A stretch of DNA of 64,000 nt. Source: Nitrosopumilus sp. Its GTDB lineage: Archaea; Thermoproteota; Nitrososphaeria; Nitrososphaerales; Nitrosopumilaceae. The position numbers and the translations under genes are program-made. The notes beneath the pieces are model-generated. The model searched no databases and had not been told where the DNA came from. It saw nothing but the letters and a program-made list of their open reading frames with translations. The first letter of the stretch is position 1. Each line of letters begins with the position of its first letter. This document shows positions 5,602 to 56,337 of this stretch, piece after piece. The stretch is taken from positions 864,001 to 928,000 of the forward strand of contig OZ244732.1 of NCBI GenBank assembly GCA_965219345.1, read 5' to 3'.

Positions 5602-5711
5602 GTAGGAAATCCTTATAATTCTTCATCATCTCACAGCCTGACTTTGCGGATGCTGCCCAGGACACAACCGAGCAGGTAGGAAATCCTTATAATTCTTCAT
5701 CATTTCACACC
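5602..5711. repeat. Isolated repeat-spacer-repeat (34-36-bp duplication, 38-40-bp insert)
   Basis: gtaggaaatccttataattcttcatcatYtcaca at 5602 and 5676 around a GC-rich unique insert. Confidence 0.85.
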
Positions 5712-10439: not shown

Positions 10440-11234
10440 ATGGAACTTTACAAAAGATATTCTGATAGAAAGAAATCTGGAAGAAATTCTAATCGAAGCG
10501 AAAAATCATTTCGTTCTTTTAGAAATTCCAGAGATGATGGGGGCTCAAGATATTCCAGAGATGATAGAAGAGAAGAATCTACAACTGTAACTTGTGCTGA
10601 TTGTGGTACCGAATGTCAAGTTCCATTTGTTCCGAGAACTGACAAACCTGTATTCTGCAGTGATTGTTTCAGACAAAACAAACCACAAGATTCTAGAAAT
10701 GATAGATATTCCAGAGATGATAGGGGTTCAAGATATTCCAGAGATGATAGGGGTTCAAGATATTCCAGAGATGATAGGGGTTCAAGATATTCCAGAGATG
10801 ATAGGGGTTCAAGATATTCCAGAGATGACAGGGGTTCACGTTCAAGTAAAGATAATTCTAGACCTAGAAAATCAATAAATAATAAATTTTTAAAAAAACA
10901 GGAAAGCTTCTTTTCTGATGGTTCAGAAAAATTCTATGCAACTCTAAAAGAAAAATTATTTGAAATTTTAGGAGGAAAAGTTTGTTCTAGCTGTGGATTT
11001 AAAGATGAAAGGGCTTTAGGATTTAGTCATAAATTTGATGATCAAGCATTTGATGATATTGGACGTGGAGGAGTCGCATCTTCATGGGGAAAGTATATCT
11101 CAGAACCGGAACTTGCTAGAGAAGAACTTAATGTGATGTGCTTGAACTGTAACGAAATTAGACAACCCATGTCAAAATCAAAAGAATCCAGTTCAAAACC
11201 TAAACAGAAAAAGAGCAGACACTTTCCTAGATGA
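10440..11234 (+). CDS. CxxC-x17-CxxC zinc-ribbon protein with R/S/D-rich repeats
   Basis: CADCGTECQVPF..P...KPVFCSDCF; second CxxC pair; SRDDRGSRY repeats. Confidence 0.85.
   Translation: MELYKRYSDRKKSGRNSNRSEKSFRSFRNSRDDGGSRYSRDDRREESTTVTCADCGTECQVPFVPRTDKPVFCSDCFRQNKPQDSRNDRYSRDDRGSRYSRDDRGSRYSRDDRGSRYSRDDRGSRYSRDDRGSRSSKDNSRPRKSINNKFLKKQESFFSDGSEKFYATLKEKLFEILGGKVCSSCGFKDERALGFSHKFDDQAFDDIGRGGVASSWGKYISEPELAREELNVMCLNCNEIRQPMSKSKESSSKPKQKKSRHFPR
10705..10838 (+). repeat. 27-bp in-frame tandem repeat (~5 copies)
   Basis: agatattccagagatgataggggttca units encoding RYSRDDRGS. Confidence 0.92.
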
Positions 11235-39721: not shown

Positions 39722-39933
39722 AAATAACTGTTAAATTATTATTTAAACAGATTATTCTGTGCTTATTTATATGTGAACTAAAGTCTTAAATTATCATTTT
39801 GTAAAGTATTGGTGAAGGTTAAAACTAGCAAAAAACTTTGCTTCTTGTAACTCTTCCCGAGCTCCGAAAAATGAAGCCTTGTTTGACTCGAATGACAAGG
39901 CGGATTTTTATCTTAATTAATTATTGTAAACGT

Positions 39934-40018
39934 GATAAGATGGTATAGTTTGGTTAGTACGCCTCCCTTATGAGTAGGTCACATTCGAGTGGCGGGGGTT
40001 CAAATCCCTCTCTCGTCG
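39934..40018 (+). tRNA. Degenerate type-II tRNA (Leu/Ser-like body, TAT at the anticodon)
   Basis: GTTCAAATCCC T-arm, D-loop GG, long variable arm; mismatches in the acceptor and anticodon stems. Confidence 0.6.
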
Positions 40019-40095
40019 TTTTTATGATCCATTTTATGTTGATCATATTTTTAAAAAATTCTGAAGGATGGGATTTTATATGACTAACAAGGCCT

Positions 40096-44812: not shown

Positions 44813-44836
44813 GGGGGGGGGGGGGGTGTGTGTGTG
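44813..44836 (+). repeat. G14 homopolymer plus (TG)5 upstream of the giant gene
   Basis: Directly visible between TTTATATATA (44761) and ATG (44848). Confidence 0.85.
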
Positions 44837-44847
44837 AAAATAAAGAG

Positions 44848-47800
44848 ATGGAGAGAATTTCCTTTGTTATTTTAATTTCCACGCTGATGTTGGCCTCTTT
44901 GTCCATTGTTCCGGCACATGCGGCGGAGCACCCGACAATCACCGCAGCTTCTGTAACCTTGGCTACCAGCATAGTCCTGACGTATGATGAGAATGTAAAC
45001 GTCACAACGATAGACGGCGCAGGATTCGCCCTCTCTGACGGGGGAACGGTGACGGCAAACTCTGATCCCGAAGGTTCGGACGACACCATAACCCTTACCG
45101 TCTCTGGCATCACAACATCCGATGCTCCAGTTATAACTTACATCGCTCCACCTGGCACCGTGGTTGACGCGGAATCAAACCCGGCAGCAGACCAGACCTT
45201 TGACCGCACAACCGATAACGCGCCGCCAACCGTGTCCTCCATTGCAACTGCCGGCACATTGGCAATTGATATCGTACTGTCCGAAGACGTCACAATAAAC
45301 GGTGCGGCACCAGGAGACTTTGCGCTGTCCGGCACCATATCCACAAATCCTACCGTGACTGGAATCACGGCCGCTGCCGACACGGTCACCCCTGCCCTCA
45401 GCAGTGTGCTTGATAGTAATGATGTCATCAACCTGGCATACGACAAAACCACGGGCAGCATAGATGACATTCCTGCTCCTCCTCCTCCGTCCTTTGTCGG
45501 CTCCTTCTCGGTAGACTCACAAAACATCGTCCCACAAGGCCTGGCCTTCTCTGCTGACGGATACAAGATGTTTGTAATGGATTCTATCTTTGATTTGGTT
45601 AACGAGTACGCGCTGCCAAAGCCATTTACTTTGCTTCCGCAGCCAAACTCGCTTGCCAGCTTTGATGCAAGGTCGGTCACAAACAACATTGCATCACCAC
45701 GCGGTGAAATTGATCCCTCGATAGATACCACCCCACCGGAAATCACCGCAGCTGCCGTGACCTCCCTTACCGAGATACTCCTGACATACAGCGAGAACAT
45801 AGACGTCACAACCACAGACGGCGAAGGATTCGCCCTCTCTGACGGAGGAACGGTGTCGGCAAACTCTGATCCCGCCAGTACGGACGACACCATAACCCTT
45901 ACCGTCTCTGGCATCACCACAGCATCCGATGCTCCAAACGTGATTTACACCGAGTCTGATGGCTCCGTGACAGATACCGCGTCAAACCCGGCCGAAGACC
46001 AGACCTTTACTGACACCACCCCGCTACCAGATACTATTCCACCAACAATCACCGCAGCTGCCGTGACCTCCCTTACCGAGATACTCCTGACATACAGCGA
46101 GAACATAGACGTCACAACCACAGACGGCGAAGGATTCGCCCTCTCTGACGGAGGAACGGTGTCGGCAAACTCTGATCCCGCCAGTACGGACGACACCATA
46201 ACCCTTACCGTCTCTGGCATCACCACAGCATCCGATGCTCCAAACGTGATTTACACCGAGTCTGATGGCTCCGTGACAGATACCGCGTCAAACCCGGCCG
46301 AAGACCAGACCTTTACTGACACCACCCCGCTACCAGATACTATTCCACCAACAATCACCGCAGCTGCCGTGACCTCCCTTACCGAGATACTCCTGACATA
46401 CAGCGAGAACATAGACGTCACAACCACAGACGGCGAAGGATTCGCCCTCTCTGACGGAGGAACGGTGTCGGCAAACTCTGATCCCGCCAGTACGGACGAC
46501 ACCATAACCCTTACCGTCTCTGGCATCACCACAGCATCCGATGCTCCAAACGTGATTTACACCGAGTCTGATGGCTCCGTGACAGATACCGCGTCAAACC
46601 CGGCCGAAGACCAGACCTTTACTGACACCACCCCGCTACCAGATACTATTCCACCAACAATCACCGCAGCTGCCGTGACCTCCCTTACCGAGATACTCCT
46701 GACATACAGCGAGAACATAGACGTCACAACCACAGACGGCGAAGGATTCGCCCTCTCTGACGGAGGAACGGTGTCGGCAAACTCTGATCCCGCCAGTACG
46801 GACGACACCATAACCCTTACCGTCTCTGGCATCACCACAGCATCCGATGCTCCAAACGTGATTTACACCGAGTCTGATGGCTCCGTGACAGATACCGCGT
46901 CAAACCCGGCCGAAGACCAGACCTTTACTGACACCACCCCGCTACCAGATACTATTCCACCAACAATCACCGCAGCTGCCGTGACCTCCCTTACCGAGAT
47001 ACTCCTGACATACAGCGAGAACATAGACGTCACAACCACAGACGGCGAAGGATTCGCCCTCTCTGACGGAGGAACGGTGTCGGCAAACTCTGATCCCGCC
47101 AGTACGGACGACACCATAACCCTTACCGTCTCTGGCATCACCACAGCATCCGATGCTCCAAACGTGATTTACACCGAGTCTGATGGCTCCGTGACAGATA
47201 CCGCGTCAAACCCGGCCGAAGACCAGACCTTTACTGACACCACCCCGCTACCAGATACTATTCCACCAACAATCACCGCAGCTGCCGTGACCTCCCTTAC
47301 CGAGATACTCCTGACATACAGCGAGAACATAGACGTCACAACCACAGACGGCGAAGGATTCGCCCTCTCTGACGGAGGAACGGTGTCGGCAAACTCTGAT
47401 CCCGCCAGTACGGACGACACCATAACCCTTACCGTCTCTGGCATCACCACAGCATCCGATGCTCCAAACGTGATTTACACCGAGTCTGATGGCTCCGTGA
47501 CAGATACCGCGTCAAACCCGGCCGAAGACCAGACCTTTACTGACACCACCCCGCTACCAGATACTATTCCACCAACAATCACCGCAGCTGCCGTGACCTC
47601 CCTTACCGAGATACTCCTGACATACAGCGAGAACATAGACGTCACAACCACAGACGGCGAAGGATTCGCCCTCTCTGACGGAGGAACGGTGTCGGCAAAC
47701 TCTGATCCCGCCAGTACGGACGACACCATAACCCTTACCGTCTCTGGCATCACCACAGCATCCGATGCTCCAAACGTGATTTACACCGAGTCTGATGGCT

Positions 47801-50235
47801 CCGTGACAGATACCGCGTCAAACCCGGCCGAAGACCAGACCTTTACTGACACCACCCCGCTACCAGATACTATTCCACCAACAATCACCGCAGCTGCCGT
47901 GACCTCCCTTACCGAGATACTCCTGACATACAGCGAGAACATAGACGTCACAACCACAGACGGCGAAGGATTCGCCCTCTCTGACGGAGGAACGGTGTCG
48001 GCAAACTCTGATCCCGCCAGTACGGACGACACCATAACCCTTACCGTCTCTGGCATCACCACAGCATCCGATGCTCCAAACGTGATTTACACCGAGTCTG
48101 ATGGCTCCGTGACAGATACCGCGTCAAACCCGGCCGAAGACCAGACCTTTACTGACACCACCCCGCTACCAGATACTATTCCACCAACAATCACCGCAGC
48201 TGCCGTGACCTCCCTTACCGAGATACTCCTGACATACAGCGAGAACATAGACGTCACAACCACAGACGGCGAAGGATTCGCCCTCTCTGACGGAGGAACG
48301 GTGTCGGCAAACTCTGATCCCGCCAGTACGGACGACACCATAACCCTTACCGTCTCTGGCATTACCGACACATCCGATACTCCAGCCATCACCTATACCG
48401 ATTCACTTGGCACCGTAGCAGATACCGCGTCAAACCCAGCAGCAAACCAGACCTTTACCGGTACAACCGATAACGCGCCGCCAACCGTATCCTCCATTGC
48501 AACTGCTGGCACATCAACAATTGATATCGTGCTGTCCGAAGACGTTACAATAAACGGTGCGGCACCCGAAGACTTTGTGCTGTCCGGCACCATATCCACG
48601 GACCCGGTCGTAACCGAAATCACCGCCATTGCCGCTGCCAACACGGTCACCCTTACCCTTAACGATACGCTTGATCATGATGATGTCATCCTCCTGGCAT
48701 ACACCAAAACCACGGGCAGCATAGATGACATTCCTGCCGCTTCTGCCTTCCCTGACGGCTCCTTCTCGGTAGGTTCACAGGACACAACCCCAAACGGCCT
48801 GGCCTTCTCTGCTAACGGAACCAGCATGTTTGTCATAGGCAGCGGTAACGATGCCGTACACCAGTACGCGCTACCCGCCCCATTTGACATATCCAATGTC
48901 ACCGGCACATCGGATGTCTCCCATGTCGCCCGTTTACTGGTAGGTTCACAGGACACAACCCCAAACGGCCTGGCCTTCTCTGCTAACGGAACCAGCATGT
49001 TTGTCATAGGCAGCGTTAACGTTGCCGTATACCAGTACGCGCTACCCTCCCCATTTGACATATCCAATGTCACCGGCGTATCCAATGTCACCCTTGCCAG
49101 CTCCTTCCTGGTAGGTTCACAGGACATGTTCCCGCGAGACGTGGCCTTCTCCAACGACGGACACAGGATGTTTGTAGTGGGTGAACAGAGTGATGCCGTA
49201 CACCAGTACGATCTGGCCGCCCCCTTTGACGTATCCACTGCCTCCTATGACGACATCTCCTTCTCAGTACTTTCACAAGACAACTCCCCGCGGGGCCTGG
49301 CCTTCTCCAATGACGGAACCAGCATGTTTGTCATAGGCAGCGTTAACGTTGCCGTATACCAGTACGCGCTACCCGCCCCATTTGACATATCCCATGTCAC
49401 CGGCATATCGGATGTCTCCTATGCCGGCTCCTTCCCGGTAGGTTCACAAGAGTCATCCCCGCGAGGACTGGCCTTCTCCAACGACGGTACCAGGATGTTT
49501 GTAGTGGGCTCTAACAGCGATGCCGTACACCGGTACGCGCTGTCCGAACAGTTCAACCTGCTTCCGCAACCAAACTCGCTTGCCAGCTTTGCGGCAATTT
49601 CTGTCACAAACAACATTGCACCGCCCGTTGTGGATGATACGGAGAAACCAGAACCTGAACCGGAAAGAAAGCCCGAAAAGAGCGGCAGAGGCGGTGGCGG
49701 CGGTGGCGGCCGTACCGGCGTCAGTCCTAGCGGAGAACCCCTGTCCAACATTGAGCTTTACGGCGTTTCATGGAACTGTGAGACGGGCCTAATCCGAATA
49801 ATAACCGGTGATGACTCGTCTACGCTGTCGGTATCCGTCAGAACCTCCATTGGTGGCCTGGCCGAGGCCAGCCTGTCCGATGAAAGAATACCCGGCAGCA
49901 AGGTATTCACATCCCACATGGGGCCTTCCGAGACATACCTTGGCATACTGCTGGTGGACATAGCGGGACGGGACAGCAACATTAGAAACGAAAGCATCAG
50001 CATAAAACAGTGCGTTGGCGAGAAGACATATGATGGTGATAATAATGGTGATATGTCAGATACGCCAAAAAAGTCCCAGTCCAGTAGTAGCAGCAGCAGC
50101 GCATCCAAAGGCGACATGGAATGCAAGCCGGGCTTTACGCTGGTCAAGAACCTGAGAGATGATCTTGCCTGCCTCCTTGACCGCTCGGTACAGCCATTGA
50201 TAGAGCGCGGCTGGGCGGAATCAATAGTCGGATAA
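44848..50235 (+). CDS. Giant secreted surface protein (Ig/SwmB-like repeats plus beta-propeller blades)
   Basis: Signal peptide, T/D/S-rich 102-aa repeats, P.GLAFS.DG..MFV blades, Gly linker, C-terminal C...C...RGW domain; GC-rich. Confidence 0.9.
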   Translation: MERISFVILISTLMLASLSIVPAHAAEHPTITAASVTLATSIVLTYDENVNVTTIDGAGFALSDGGTVTANSDPEGSDDTITLTVSGITTSDAPVITYIAPPGTVVDAESNPAADQTFDRTTDNAPPTVSSIATAGTLAIDIVLSEDVTINGAAPGDFALSGTISTNPTVTGITAAADTVTPALSSVLDSNDVINLAYDKTTGSIDDIPAPPPPSFVGSFSVDSQNIVPQGLAFSADGYKMFVMDSIFDLVNEYALPKPFTLLPQPNSLASFDARSVTNNIASPRGEIDPSIDTTPPEITAAAVTSLTEILLTYSENIDVTTTDGEGFALSDGGTVSANSDPASTDDTITLTVSGITTASDAPNVIYTESDGSVTDTASNPAEDQTFTDTTPLPDTIPPTITAAAVTSLTEILLTYSENIDVTTTDGEGFALSDGGTVSANSDPASTDDTITLTVSGITTASDAPNVIYTESDGSVTDTASNPAEDQTFTDTTPLPDTIPPTITAAAVTSLTEILLTYSENIDVTTTDGEGFALSDGGTVSANSDPASTDDTITLTVSGITTASDAPNVIYTESDGSVTDTASNPAEDQTFTDTTPLPDTIPPTITAAAVTSLTEILLTYSENIDVTTTDGEGFALSDGGTVSANSDPASTDDTITLTVSGITTASDAPNVIYTESDGSVTDTASNPAEDQTFTDTTPLPDTIPPTITAAAVTSLTEILLTYSENIDVTTTDGEGFALSDGGTVSANSDPASTDDTITLTVSGITTASDAPNVIYTESDGSVTDTASNPAEDQTFTDTTPLPDTIPPTITAAAVTSLTEILLTYSENIDVTTTDGEGFALSDGGTVSANSDPASTDDTITLTVSGITTASDAPNVIYTESDGSVTDTASNPAEDQTFTDTTPLPDTIPPTITAAAVTSLTEILLTYSENIDVTTTDGEGFALSDGGTVSANSDPASTDDTITLTVSGITTASDAPNVIYTESDGSVTDTASNPAEDQTFTDTTPLPDTIPPTITAAAVTSLTEILLTYSENIDVTTTDGEGFALSDGGTVSANSDPASTDDTITLTVSGITTASDAPNVIYTESDGSVTDTASNPAEDQTFTDTTPLPDTIPPTITAAAVTSLTEILLTYSENIDVTTTDGEGFALSDGGTVSANSDPASTDDTITLTVSGITDTSDTPAITYTDSLGTVADTASNPAANQTFTGTTDNAPPTVSSIATAGTSTIDIVLSEDVTINGAAPEDFVLSGTISTDPVVTEITAIAAANTVTLTLNDTLDHDDVILLAYTKTTGSIDDIPAASAFPDGSFSVGSQDTTPNGLAFSANGTSMFVIGSGNDAVHQYALPAPFDISNVTGTSDVSHVARLLVGSQDTTPNGLAFSANGTSMFVIGSVNVAVYQYALPSPFDISNVTGVSNVTLASSFLVGSQDMFPRDVAFSNDGHRMFVVGEQSDAVHQYDLAAPFDVSTASYDDISFSVLSQDNSPRGLAFSNDGTSMFVIGSVNVAVYQYALPAPFDISHVTGISDVSYAGSFPVGSQESSPRGLAFSNDGTRMFVVGSNSDAVHRYALSEQFNLLPQPNSLASFAAISVTNNIAPPVVDDTEKPEPEPERKPEKSGRGGGGGGGRTGVSPSGEPLSNIELYGVSWNCETGLIRIITGDDSSTLSVSVRTSIGGLAEASLSDERIPGSKVFTSHMGPSETYLGILLVDIAGRDSNIRNESISIKQCVGEKTYDGDNNGDMSDTPKKSQSSSSSSSASKGDMECKPGFTLVKNLRDDLACLLDRSVQPLIERGWAESIVG
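45742..48362 (+). repeat. 306-bp tandem repeat (8 full copies plus a partial ninth)
   Basis: Unit starts at 45742, 46048, 46354, 46660, 46966, 47272, 47578, 47884, 48190; identical by eye. Confidence 0.95.
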
Positions 50236-50328: not shown

Positions 50329-50500
50329 GGTTCTGGTAAAAAACGGTGATCAAGATCACCAAAAATTAACAGCAGGGTTATGACAGATAATTTCAAGAAA
50401 ATTACCATGTACTAATTATCCTAGGATTTCAAAGAGCGATTCGGAGAGAAGATCTATGTCTGATGATTTATGGTGCAGATCACCAGAATTTACCAGAACC
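50329..50500. mobile_element. MITE copy 2
   Basis: GGTTCTGGTAAA...TTTACCAGAACC. Confidence 0.88.
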
Positions 50501-51624: not shown

Positions 51625-52040
51625 GTTATTCCAAATCTTTTTTCACCTCTTCGAATTCACCCTTTGAGATATCCCCCTGGCATACCTTGCCTTGAGAATT
51701 GTTATCGGGTTCTCATCAGCAGAAGACCTGGCTGGCATGTTCTTTTTGTCCTTGGCAACATTGATCTTCTCTCTGACACAGTCGTATATTTTTTCTGCCA
51801 TCTCCTTTTGGTACTGCTCCTAGCTGACGGGGCAGTCCATACAAGCTGACACAGTCGTATATTTTTTCTGCCATCTCCTTTGGTATGGCATCTATCACGC
51901 CTTCAGTCCCTGCCCCGTATCGTAGTCTTTCTGTCATACTTTGATATTTCAATCAGACCGGGAATCGCAAACACAAGCGATGAAGAGAACAGGCCCTTCT
52001 CCAGCCTCACGTTTGTGGTCTGTCGGTAATAGTATTCCTC
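51625..52040 (-). pseudogene. SHOCT-domain protein, disrupted
   Basis: ILKARYARG-ISKGEFEEVKKDLE across a small frameshift; interrupted by the 73-bp duplication/insertion. Confidence 0.65.
51773..51881. repeat. Isolated repeat-spacer-repeat (36-bp exact duplication, 37-bp insert)
   Basis: ctgacacagtcgtatattttttctgccatctccttt at 51773 and 51846. Confidence 0.9.
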
Positions 52041-52336
52041 AATGGGTTCTGATAAATTCTGATGATCCTCTTTTCCTCATTTCTCAAATATATTATGAGT
52101 CTAGTATAATATTAGATGTTGACAACTAATTTGATAAGATATTGGGTTGAGCACAAAGCCAATCTTTGATGATCATACGGATCTAAAGCGCAGCTAAGCA
52201 CATTCTGACTCGTCTGCATATAACTGGAATCCCTCACCTGTCAGATGGAAAAAAGCGTCAGACTCTGAGCTCTGACTCGTATCTTTATGCTCCTTTCAAG
52301 TTCTGTCTTCCTACCACATTTGTCTCACCTGATAAC

Positions 52337-52722
52337 GGTGAGACAGTATGAACAGAGGGCCGTCAATCCAGCTCGAGCAGATCCCCGAATTCATTGAGAT
52401 GCTAAAGTGGGTATGCGAGAGATATTCCAAAGGTAAAATCGGATCTAAGATGGCAAGGACTGGGCACGTTTGCAGATTTTATAGAAGAAGAAGAATAATA
52501 ATAATAATGATGATGATGATGCAAATCACTGCAAGCAATGATGCCGTGTATGACCCCCCGATAATCTCTGATGCCATGACAAGGCATCCTGCCAAGATAA
52601 TACATGACGCGTGGAAGCTCTTGGGAGTTGCACGGACTCTGTGCGCCTAAGAAAGCACAAAAAGACAATCAAAAAGATAGGCGGGAACCCGTAGGAATTC
52701 TTGACTCCTAACATTTTTTTAG
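52337..52722 (+). repeat. ~380-bp dispersed repeat, copy A
   Basis: Inverted homologue at 55181-55619. Confidence 0.88.
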
Positions 52723-52744
52723 TGGTACAACATACATGAGACAC

Positions 52745-52873
52745 ATGTCAGATACAAGGGAGGTAGATGATCTTACTCCTGAGGAGATCAAAGATATTGA
52801 TGAATTCTATCAATCAAAAGACAGAAAAACATCATCAATTGAGGAATTTCTTGAAGAATTGCATAACTCTTGA
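52745..52873 (+). CDS. Putative antitoxin (42 aa)
   Basis: DLTPEEIKDI...SSIEEFLEEL; overlaps the toxin start. Confidence 0.7.
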   Translation: MSDTREVDDLTPEEIKDIDEFYQSKDRKTSSIEEFLEELHNS

Positions 52874-54732: not shown

Positions 54733-54904
54733 GGTTCTGGTAAAAAACGGTGATCAGGATCACCAGAATTTAACAGCATGGTTATGACAGATAATTTCAA
54801 GAAAATTACCCGGTACTGGTTATCCCAGGATTTCAAAGAGCGATTCGGAGAGAAGATCCATGTCTGATGATTTATGGTGCAGATCACCAGAATTTACCAG
54901 AACC
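54733..54904. mobile_element. MITE copy 3
   Basis: Same TIRs and body as copy 2. Confidence 0.88.
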
Positions 54905-54910
54905 TTCCAG

Positions 54911-55159
54911 CTAGTCATCTTTCTTCAGATCTTCTAATAGATCCTCAACATCGGAGAACACCTTTCCGGCTGGCTCGTTTTGCGCATCGATGATACCAAG
55001 TACTTCTTCAGGAATCAAATCATCTTCATGCAAGTCTTTTAGGTATTGCTCGAAGCTTTTAGATTTTGAGATTTCATCTTTCTCAAAATCTTCCCTGATT
55101 ATCTCCAGCTTGTCTTCTGGAAGATGGTCAAAGTGGTTTACGGTCCTGGTTTCAGACAT
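54911..55159 (-). CDS. Putative antitoxin (partner gene cut by MITE)
   Basis: Acidic; KVFSDVEDLLEDL tail; overlapping ATG ACT AGC TGG frame runs straight into the MITE. Confidence 0.65.
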   Translation of the reverse strand: MSETRTVNHFDHLPEDKLEIIREDFEKDEISKSKSFEQYLKDLHEDDLIPEEVLGIIDAQNEPAGKVFSDVEDLLEDLKKDD

Positions 55160-55180
55160 GTCTTTTTTATTTTCTGCATC

Positions 55181-55619
55181 CTAAAAAATGTTAGGAGTCA
55201 AGAATTCCTACGGGTTCCCGCCTTGTCTTTTTGATTGTCTTTTTGTGTCTTCTTAGGCGCACAGAGTCCTGTGCAATTCCTAGGATCTTCCACGCGTCAT
55301 GTATTACCTTGGCAGGATGCCTTGCCATGGCATCAGAGATTATCGAGTCATTAATTATTTTTAGTTAGTTTTTGATTTTTCAAGCAGGATGCCTTGCCAT
55401 GGCATCAGAGATTATCGAGGGGGTCATACTACGGCATCATTGCTTGCAGTGATTTGCATCATTATTCTTCTTCTATAAAATCTGCAAACGTGCCCAGTCC
55501 TTGCCATCTTGGACTCGATTTTACCTTTGGAATATCTCTCGTATATCCCTTTAGCATCTCAATGAATTCGGGAATCTGCTCGAGCTGGATTGACGGTCCT
55601 CTGTTCATACTGTCTCACC
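55181..55619 (-). repeat. ~380-bp dispersed repeat, copy B (with 72-bp insertion)
   Basis: Reverse complement of 52337-52722. Confidence 0.88.
55312..55419. repeat. Isolated repeat-spacer-repeat (36-bp exact duplication, 36-bp insert)
   Basis: gcaggatgccttgccatggcatcagagattatcgag at 55312 and 55384; single copy in the paralogue at 52557-52592. Confidence 0.93.
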
Positions 55620-56337
55620 AACCATTAACGGCATTTACATTAAAGCCGTAATTTTGGTTATATTTGCCGTCAATAATATCGGCATTTACTATATCGTATT
55701 TCTGTCCGTCTTTGTTTATTGTCATGTTTAGTTTTCCGTAATTCAGATCATCATCTATAATATGCACATTATAGCCAATATTATTATTAATTCTATAATC
55801 TAAAATTGTAATTAATGGTTCATAATTACTATCAAAGTCTTTAGACTCAAAATTATGTAATGTGCCATTAATAATTCTAAGAGTGTCATTAAAAGCCGTT
55901 ATCTTAGTATTTTTAGGTAAGGTATTCTTAATTCTATCATTTACAATTAATTTAAAATCAAAAATATCTTTTTGTTTTACATCTTTGATTTTTATTTTTG
56001 GTAAAATTGTATCAAAGTCATTTAGAGTTATAGTATTATTTGTTGGATTCAGATAAGTCCAATTATAAGATAATTTTCTTTTTTCAGGGTCATAAGAGCC
56101 AATGCCGTTTAGTAGCAATTCGGCAAATTTACCATTAATAAAATTATGATAAATTATTTGATCTAAATTAACAAAGGCATGGGGTTTATGATTCGTTGAA
56201 CCACTTTTAAGATATTTAACAAAAAAAGAATCCTCTAAATTATCATTAATGGTTTTTTTATCAAAGTTTTTTTCTGCATTAATTGTTATTTTGTATTCTC
56301 CTAAAACGGAATTACTAGGGATAAAATATTTTGTCAA
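55615..56337 (-). pseudogene. Very AT-rich fragment of a PKD/Ig-domain surface protein
   Basis: LNGIGSYDPEKRKLSYNWT...FDFKLIVND; 3' end abuts repeat copy B. Confidence 0.6.

Follow-up and report, generated by a model that had tools for sequence, protein, structure and literature searches.

Off-target integration by Cas1-Cas2 is well documented in the laboratory, and by the accounts on which this comparison draws, its support in nature is circumstantial. A 2018 study by Nivala, Shipman and Church in Nat Microbiol reportedly describes non-canonical Cas1-Cas2 integration that gives rise to 'neo-CRISPR' loci. As outlined in citing papers, that study concerned off-target integration in Escherichia coli type I-E cells over-producing Cas1-Cas2 (bioRxiv 10.1101/148544; PMC6698737; PMC7054753), with 'circumstantial evidence' only for two other species (bioRxiv 10.1101/148544). 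For Cas1-Cas2 of Pyrococcus furiosus, off-target integration in vitro, in which the two strand transfers are a constant distance apart, is described in the part of the source used here (PMC6698737). The type I-U (now I-G) Cas4/1-Cas2 of Geobacter sulfurreducens, according to excerpts of the paper on it, inserts spacers predominantly of 36 bp with a TTN PAM, and TTN is found for 50-80% of naive spacers (PMC6547450). Among the titles and abstracts listed in literature searches there is neither a natural genome-wide catalogue of such scars nor a report on CRISPR in Nitrosopumilus.

The locus described here, at positions 55312-55419 of a stretch of Nitrosopumilus DNA, is a clean natural case in which the machinery, the donor, the filled site and, in the form of a paralogue, the empty site occur together in one genome. 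The unit very probably represents off-target (ectopic) integration of a spacer by the resident Cas4-Cas1/Cas2 of a type I-G-like system.

The 36/36/36 unit, its empty site and its donor

The window is the whole stretch of DNA that was analysed, 64,000 nt in length, and corresponds to C1:864001-928000 in a genome with two contigs, a chromosome of 1.87 Mb and a second one of 41.6 kb. Positions without prefix are those of the window. The 36-mer GCAGGATGCCTTGCCATGGCATCAGAGATTATCGAG is present at 55312-55347 and again at 55384-55419 on the plus strand with 0 mismatches in each copy, and a 36-nt insert at 55348-55383 (+) lies between them; the 36-mer had matches in 0 of 100 dinucleotide-preserving shuffles. 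The left and right copies of this duplicated target ('neo-repeats' 1 and 2) have the length of the repeat of the CRISPR array. A sequence-only reading of this DNA had reported a perfect 36/36/36 unit, and this is borne out, with the caveat that the left boundary is ambiguous by 1 nt (one G) and also admits a 35+37 reading, the donor match being 36 or 37 nt and the duplication 36 or 35 nt. The insert is also as extremely AT-rich as had been stated, with a GC fraction of 0.14. When one repeat and the insert are excised in silico, the open frame across the site increases from 91 to 114 codons, a gain too small for a gene call. A MITE-like element is found at 54733-54904, ~400 nt from the scar.

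A third copy of the 36-mer is present at 52557-52592 on the minus strand, where it is single, carries no insert and displays 34/36 identity. The two sites are part of inverted paralogous modules of ~480 nt, 55150-55640 (+) and 52320-52750 (-), which have 86% mean column identity when aligned. Module B (55159-55619, +) is an inverted copy of 52337-52743, as defined by inverted repeats I1-I6 and I8 and by the alignment, and is the module that received the insertion; module A (52337-52743, -), defined likewise by inverted repeats and alignment, is uninterrupted. The pairwise alignment of the two, which the sequence-only reading had put forward as a check, displays one clean gap in copy A that equals one repeat plus the insert. 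An empty copy had been claimed within the window: a single target without the insert is indeed found there, but with its 2 mismatches it is a paralogue rather than an identical allele, and it serves as a stand-in for the empty site. A 1-kb query centred on the unit, searched against 40 relatives, did not find the target region in any of them apart from a partial 77-81% match in G009 off the site, and no orthologous empty site was found among them, the 2-mismatch paralogue being the empty site available. Parts of the stretch are found in nine public runs, none of those listed being an RNA run. Contigs of four runs display no empty allele and none bridges the unit; the contigs break at the 36-mers, so that they allow no inference on filled/empty polymorphism. 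A joint among these contigs (X5) that 'goes back 72' is ambiguous across the repeat (both = 36).

A protospacer search, also suggested by the sequence-only reading, was productive. BLAST against the genome finds the insert as a 36/36 copy of C1:575144-575179, with unrelated flanks. This donor lies within a 484-bp intergenic region, 85 bp upstream of orc1/cdc6, a gene encoding a 402-aa protein with the Cdc6 lid and winged-helix domains (Cdc6/Orc1), and TTG directly precedes it. Of the 24 same-genus genomes among the 40 relatives searched, 19 contain a match of 86-97% to the 33-nt core of the insert, which argues that the copy beside orc1 is ancestral and the copy in the window derived. Cumulative GC skew along the chromosome reaches its maximum at 590 kb, near the donor, and the orc1/cdc6 region is therefore taken to be the replication-origin side.

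Two more units are present in the window. One, at 51773-51881 (+), has 36/37/36 dimensions, and its insert is copied from C1:1636412-1636448, within an LCM methyltransferase gene located 3 kb upstream of cas4-cas1. The other, at 5602-5709 (+; C1:869602-869709), is an older unit; it has a 34-nt repeat (33/34 identical), a 40-nt insert and a period of 74, and no donor was found for its insert. Donors had been described as heterogeneous, and an AT-rich intergenic region on the origin side for the 55312-55419 scar and a methyltransferase gene for the 51773-51881 scar agree with this.

Recurrence, donors and targets across the genome

A k-mer scan detects a single CRISPR array in the genome, at C1:1641727-1653803. 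The array has 164 repeats, all exactly 36 nt long and 163 of them identical, and its 163 spacers measure 35 nt (8), 36 nt (37), 37 nt (35), 38 nt (34), 39 nt (23), 40 nt (13) or longer (13); 150 of the 163 are within 35-40 nt, with a mode of 36. Upstream of the array are a Cas4-Cas1 fusion of 561 aa and a Cas2 of 95 aa, and downstream a GSU0053-family protein and a Cas3 with a C-terminal HD domain, a gene set that we take to be type I-G-like (formerly I-U). The fusion is intact, with an open frame without stops and a Cas_Cas1 Pfam match (E 7e-93) over Pfam positions 1-282 of 283, and it is the sole full-length Cas1 of the genome, the other Cas1-like match being an 83-aa C-terminal fragment. 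The nearest homologous cas loci are in Nitrosopumilus and Nitrosopumilaceae MAGs. Ribosomal and proteasome genes near the cas locus identify the organism as an archaeon.

The 55312-55419 unit matches this array in its dimensions. The duplication has the length of the resident repeat (36 bp, or 35 bp if the ambiguous G is assigned to the insert), the 36-nt insert is at the mode of the spacer lengths, intact cas1 and cas2 are present in the same genome, and the unit has both a separate protospacer and a paralogous site with a single target. A comparison of the 36-mer with the CRISPR repeat of the genome had been proposed by the sequence-only reading, and the two agree in length but share only 7/36 positions, the ends of the target being also unlike the ATTTCC and GCTTCA ends of the repeat. 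Resemblance of the target to the repeat, or to the leader-repeat junction, is treated here as a reported tendency of off-target sites and not as a defining requirement. The unit does not match a functional CRISPR array, which has resident-type repeats, a leader and usually at least three repeats: its repeats are two in number and unrelated to the resident ones. Nor does it have the attributes of an IS, MITE or casposon insertion, that is, a defined and recurring element with terminal inverted repeats or genes and a short duplication. The original proposal of a CRISPR-type spacer-insertion scar is thus supported by the array dimensions, the donor and the insert-free paralogue.

Similar units recur throughout the genome. 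Both contigs were scanned for direct repeats with periods of 30-199, seeds being extended with mismatches, and a repeat was termed a singleton when no other repeat was present within 50 nt. The scan yielded 82 singletons, 35 with a period of 66-80 and 47 with other periods. A repeat length (L) of 36, 37 or 38 nt is found in 12, 9 and 4 (25 total) of the former and in 0, 1 and 1 of the latter. Conversely, the period is 70-76 for 29 of 53 singletons with L 30-42 and 68-76 for 27 of 32 with L 35-38. By our own calculation, the 12:9:4 shape is the expectation from a fixed length of 36 with chance edge matches, given the base composition. There are 38 candidates with a period of 62-80 and L of at least 27, and those with L of at least 33 and a period of 70-76 (28) were kept. 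Left out of the final count were C1:37490, a paralogous copy of C1:243305, and 9-10 candidates outside these limits, including a tandem repeat at C1:1482757. About 27 independent units remain, of which 19 have perfect repeats and three are those in the window. Their periods (70:1, 71:3, 72:5, 73:8, 74:6, 75:3, 76:1) do not differ from those of the array (KS p=0.59), and are divisible by three in 8/27, which is chance level. Mean GC is 0.42 for the inserts and likewise 0.42 for the array spacers, and the genome has 0.36. Each unit has its own unique repeat, all inserts are different apart from paralogous copies, and growth into arrays, with more than two repeats, is seen in 0/27. The targets are clustered, with 8 adjacent pairs less than 10 kb apart vs 3.5 expected (p=0.009), which would fit survival in dispensable DNA. 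At 9/27 scars, excision in silico of one repeat plus insert makes the longest open frame through the site at least 20% longer. At C1:1519410 the frame increases from 439 to 666 codons. This scar displays the same asymmetry as the one at 55312-55419: its insert matches a conserved sequence in 26/60 same-genus genomes, and the interrupted gene was found in none of them except for one 73% partial match, in G007, off the site.

Polarity was assessed at two other scars with a 2.3-kb query spanning both, an uninterrupted target being recognized by a split alignment whose parts share the length of one repeat in the subject. The C1:1503080 scar is empty in three paralogues of the same genome, which lie near 789, 1593 and 1662 kb, and also in the copies carried by G052, G009, G055 and G015. 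The C1:1504869 scar is empty in an 87-89% identical orthologue of G018.

Within the genus, 80 further genomes were searched for orthologues of the Cas4-Cas1 fusion, and 6 of them contained one. The same scan was applied to the first 800 kb of three relatives, G055, G018 and G007, the genome under study being termed G000; units with L 33-38 and a period of 70-76 were counted per 800 kb. G000, with its own Cas4-Cas1, has 13, and G055, which has a Cas4-Cas1 83% identical and 36-nt repeats, has 6. In G018 (GC 0.54) and G007 (GC 0.355), where no Cas1 was found, there are 2, one of them a tandem repeat, and 1, respectively. With the stricter L 36-38 the counts per 800 kb are 11 and 12 in two parts of G000, 4 in G055 and 1 each in G018 and G007. 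Three 39/33 units of G055 are not counted as they belong to a 72-nt tandem-repeat family, and no full donor for the G055 inserts was detected within the first 800 kb of that genome. The look-alikes in the two Cas1-less genomes comprise a single 38/34 unit plus two units of period 71 with L 32-33; the latter are in G018, which for this reason and for its GC of 0.54 is an imperfect negative control. The link of such units with integrase-bearing genomes, 13 and 6 vs 1-2 per 800 kb, comes from three relatives that are non-independent kin and is no survey; it points to Cas1-Cas2 as the probable catalyst. Among 46 homologous cas-adjacent loci, three further units with unique repeats were detected: a 37/36 unit between cas2 and the array (L013), a 38/34 unit in or beside the cas locus (L031) and a perfect 36/37 unit inside the cas4-cas1 gene of a Caldilineaceae MAG (L032).

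Donors elsewhere in the chromosome, with unrelated flanks, were identified for 7 of the 27 inserts, six of them at 100% identity and one at 34/35. They are in genes for a primase large subunit, a Cdc48-like AAA ATPase, an ArsR-type regulator, a NuoL-like protein, a HEAT-repeat protein and a methyltransferase, and in the region upstream of orc1. An eighth insert has a 26-nt match to a multicopy gene family. Three of the seven donors are located within 52 kb of orc1/cdc6 (post-hoc p=0.006). The array spacers behave differently: 0/163 have a donor match in either contig, with nothing beyond 18-19 nt, and the difference from 7/27 is significant (Fisher p=5.6e-7). The ectopic inserts and the array spacers share no match longer than 9-14 nt. 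Self-derived inserts persist ectopically but not in the array presumably because ectopic units yield no crRNA, and the 7/27 vs 0/163 difference provides direct evidence from the genome that arrays are kept free of self sequences by selection against autoimmunity and not by capture alone. A consistent PAM at the donors was looked for and none was seen, the upstream triplets being tag, gta, act, ctc, ttg, ttg and ata; TTN is found at 2/7, not clearly above chance in an AT-rich genome.

Target preference was analysed with the 12 units that have an unambiguous 36-nt repeat, both 5′ ends of the duplicated segment being pooled (n=24 half-sites). G is found at +1 in 11/24 (p=0.0015), T at +2 in 15/24 (p=0.003) and G at +4 in 15/24 (p=1.6e-6, with G at 18% in the genome), and A is enriched at +6, +7 and +9. 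The end words GTAGGA, GTAGAT, GTTGCA and CTAGAA recur. The ends of the 55312-55419 target are GCAGGA and, on the opposite strand, CTCGAT. For three exact units elsewhere, two from G055 and one from L032, a hand count gives G at +1 in 4/6, T at +2 in 4/6 and G at +4 in 2/6. The ends of the real CRISPR repeat are without the G-T-N-G motif. Two other target features were considered and set aside. Likeness to the CRISPR repeat, 7/36 at the 55312 site, averages 12.75 over the 27 targets vs 10.8 for random 36-mers, a weak difference. The hairpin GATGCC-N7-GGCATC, which the sequence-only reading had pointed out, does occur in the 36-mer (positions 5-10 and 18-23), but is no general property of targets: the mean best stem is 3.6 vs 3.9 in random sequences, and a stem of at least 6 is found in 3/27 vs 6.6% of random 36-mers. 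Among the 27 targets, only the one at 55312 has its stem in the true repeat's register (5-10/18-23 vs 5-11/18-24), and its hairpin is treated as incidental.

Proposed mechanism and rival explanations

The following sequence of events is proposed. A 36-nt prespacer would be excised from chromosomal DNA of the cell itself, at a site 85 bp upstream of orc1/cdc6 and beside a TTG. At a non-CRISPR site, the integrase would then join one 3′ end of the prespacer to each strand, at points 36 bp apart, this spacing being the ruler that the enzyme would normally apply to the 36-nt repeat. Gap repair would leave the 36-bp target duplicated on either side of the insert. Since the neo-repeats bear no relation to the CRISPR repeat, crRNA is presumably not made from the unit, which would then cause no autoimmunity against the donor and may persist as a neutral scar.

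An unlikely alternative is a CRISPR-independent process that inserts ~72 nt, composed of a short copy of the cell's own genome and a compensating target duplication. It would account for periods clustered at 70-76, for an apparent trade-off between L and insert (32-35 nt with L 38, 36-40 nt with L 36), for the one to two look-alikes per 800 kb in the Cas1-less G007 and G018, and for the self-derived inserts in 7/27 units. Repeat length is, however, sharply peaked at 36 (12), 37 (9) and 38 (4), as a fixed 36 with chance edge matches would give, and 36 is the exact length of the resident repeat, the periods also matching those of the array. The trade-off vanishes where the donor fixes the ends of the insert: the C1:123645 unit, apparently 38/32, resolves to 36+34, and the C1:429362 unit, apparently 33/40, to 36 (one mismatch) +37. 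Units with shorter repeats have no constant sum, with periods of 64-71, and two of three period-72 singletons of G007, with repeats of at least 38 nt, read in our interpretation as protein repeats of 24-25 residues.

Two other explanations are less probable still. The repeat-spacer-repeat geometry, and a hairpin in the same register as the real stem (5-10/18-23 vs 5-11/18-24), would suit a minimal orphan CRISPR array of two repeats and one spacer, acquired or evolved as such without any insertion. This is most improbable given that the 'repeat' is ordinary local sequence, single in the paralogue and without similarity to the resident repeat, that all 27 units have a unique repeat and none more than two, and that several are inside open reading frames which excision restores. 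It is equally hard to credit that the unit is a local tandem duplication or the product of replication slippage, with a middle that later diverged, or that a transposon or MITE inserted there and duplicated a long target site. Direct repeats around an insert are a generic footprint of staggered cuts, and the MITE-like element is close by, but the insert matches a distant conserved locus perfectly and is no diverged local sequence. It also has no terminal inverted repeats and occurs in only one of the 27 units, and the 36-bp duplication is far above the target duplications of IS, MITE and casposon families, which to our knowledge are all far shorter.

Off-target spacer integration remains the preferred reading, and with 27 events it can be followed as a process: they suffice to read the ruler (36 bp), the target preference, the unselected prespacer pool and the cost, genes being interrupted at 9 or more sites. 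A joint interpretation is offered tentatively, with doubt slightly outweighing confidence. The units may represent steady off-target integration in a Cas4-Cas1 lineage, with a G-T-N-G rule of its own and an unselected record of capture. The 27 retained ectopic units, against 163 array spacers, would then amount to ~1 in 7 of retained integrations, and the integrase would favour a 36-bp segment with G-T-N-G (often GTAGRA) at each 5′ end, independent of repeat sequence or hairpin. Because ectopic units would not be read as crRNA, they would record what the integrase captures before selection. If so, the captured DNA includes the cell's own, from the origin side (3/7 donors within 52 kb of orc1/cdc6) and from beside the cas genes, mostly without a PAM.

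Comparison with known systems

Casposases are homologues of Cas1. The unit resembles transposon and casposon insertions in that a staggered double strand transfer followed by gap repair would produce the target duplication. It differs from them in that the insert consists of 36 nt of ordinary chromosomal DNA, without terminal repeats or genes, and in that the 36-bp duplication has the length of a CRISPR repeat.

Closer parallels are found among the Cas1-Cas2 systems. With G. sulfurreducens, as represented in the excerpts used, the locus shares a Cas4-Cas1 fusion with Cas2 and a predominant spacer length of 36 bp, and the TTG at its donor fits TTN (PMC6547450). It departs from that system in that TTN is present at only 2/7 donors; as far as those excerpts go, the Geobacter study covered array expansion and no ectopic sites. 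As with P. furiosus, in the portion of that paper considered here, the integrase is archaeal and spacers enter non-CRISPR sites with what would be a fixed spacing (PMC6698737). The targets here, in contrast, are barely more repeat-like than random sequences, and their G-T-N-G motif is absent from the ends of the real repeat.

The 'neo-CRISPR' loci of Nivala and colleagues, as known through citing papers, are the nearest counterpart: in both cases a spacer-sized insert is located outside the array, flanked by a target duplication of repeat length, in cells with active Cas1-Cas2. Relative to the E. coli work as portrayed there, the events described here are natural, are found in an archaeon with a Cas4-Cas1 fusion and number 27 independent cases in one genome; self donors have been identified for 7 units, and no unit has gone past one spacer. 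The kind of event is thus known. What goes beyond it is the scale of 27 events, the fraction of self donors and the target motif, which provides a testable feature for an integrase family little studied in archaea.

Neighbourhood of the scars

The island of ORFans that contains two scars (36-bp target duplications flanking a spacer-sized insert, read as off-target Cas1-Cas2 integration) is directly preceded by an 1801-amino-acid open reading frame at window 44830-50235, in which SWM repeats are found together with matches to lactonase-type beta-propellers. Its GC content is 0.48-0.56 vs 0.36 for the genome, and repeats of 171-327 nt are found inside it. The frame looks like a surface protein gene that is either foreign or fast-evolving.

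Around the main scar, two paralogous modules of ∼450 nt each are present in inverted orientation at window 52337-52743 (copy A, without the insert) and 55159-55619 (copy B, with it). They share ∼92% identity when indels are left out. An ATC/ATT simple repeat is expanded in copy A and missing from copy B. The 2.4 kb between the modules consists of small open reading frames, for which there is no Pfam match. The module pair and its centre could be a composite element, an invertible element or a palindromic duplication.

Elsewhere in the window, a 27-nt unit, AGATATTCCAGAGATGATAGGGGTTCA, is tandemly repeated at 10704-10855, as detected by a direct-repeat scan. ARAGORN calls an 87-nt tRNA-Ile (anticodon TAT) at 39933-40019; its Rfam score is 42.9 bits vs 60-66 for the other four tRNAs of the window, and it may be atypical, e.g. 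intron-containing.

A MITE-like element and a Cas1 fragment

A MITE-like element of ∼172 bp with terminal inverted repeats (GGTTCTGGTAAAAAACGGTGATC...) is found twice in the window, at 50329-50500 and 54733-54904, and the chromosome (C1) has ∼10 copies, full and partial. In other copies, two different spacer-like inserts are found at one identical internal site, a possible integration hot spot. One, at C1:1824847, is a 32-nt insert with a 36-nt duplication. The second, of 35 nt with a 30-nt duplication, is shared by the copies at C1:1483340 and C1:1826968, and here the element looks to have duplicated subsequent to the insertion event.

Outside the window, an 83-amino-acid open frame at C1:1123019-1123234 aligns with the Cas1 profile over its C-terminal positions 210-281 alone (71.5 bits); this frame may represent a relic of a casposon or of a second cas1.

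Scars and look-alikes in other genomes

The genome of G055, a relative with an 83% identical Cas4-Cas1, carries a repeat family, dispersed as well as tandem, whose period is exactly 72 nt (39+33); it is located around G055:C1 307648, 481088 and 673739-683029. It imitates scar geometry yet is a repeat family, and automated scar counts must leave it out. Scar-type units are found at two cas-adjacent loci of other genomes: a perfect 36/37/36 unit within cas4-cas1 itself in a Caldilineaceae MAG (L032:3963-4071), and a 37/36/37 unit between cas2 and the array in another Nitrosopumilus MAG (L013:4945-5054). These two units suggest that the homologous integrase family scars other lineages as well, its own gene included.
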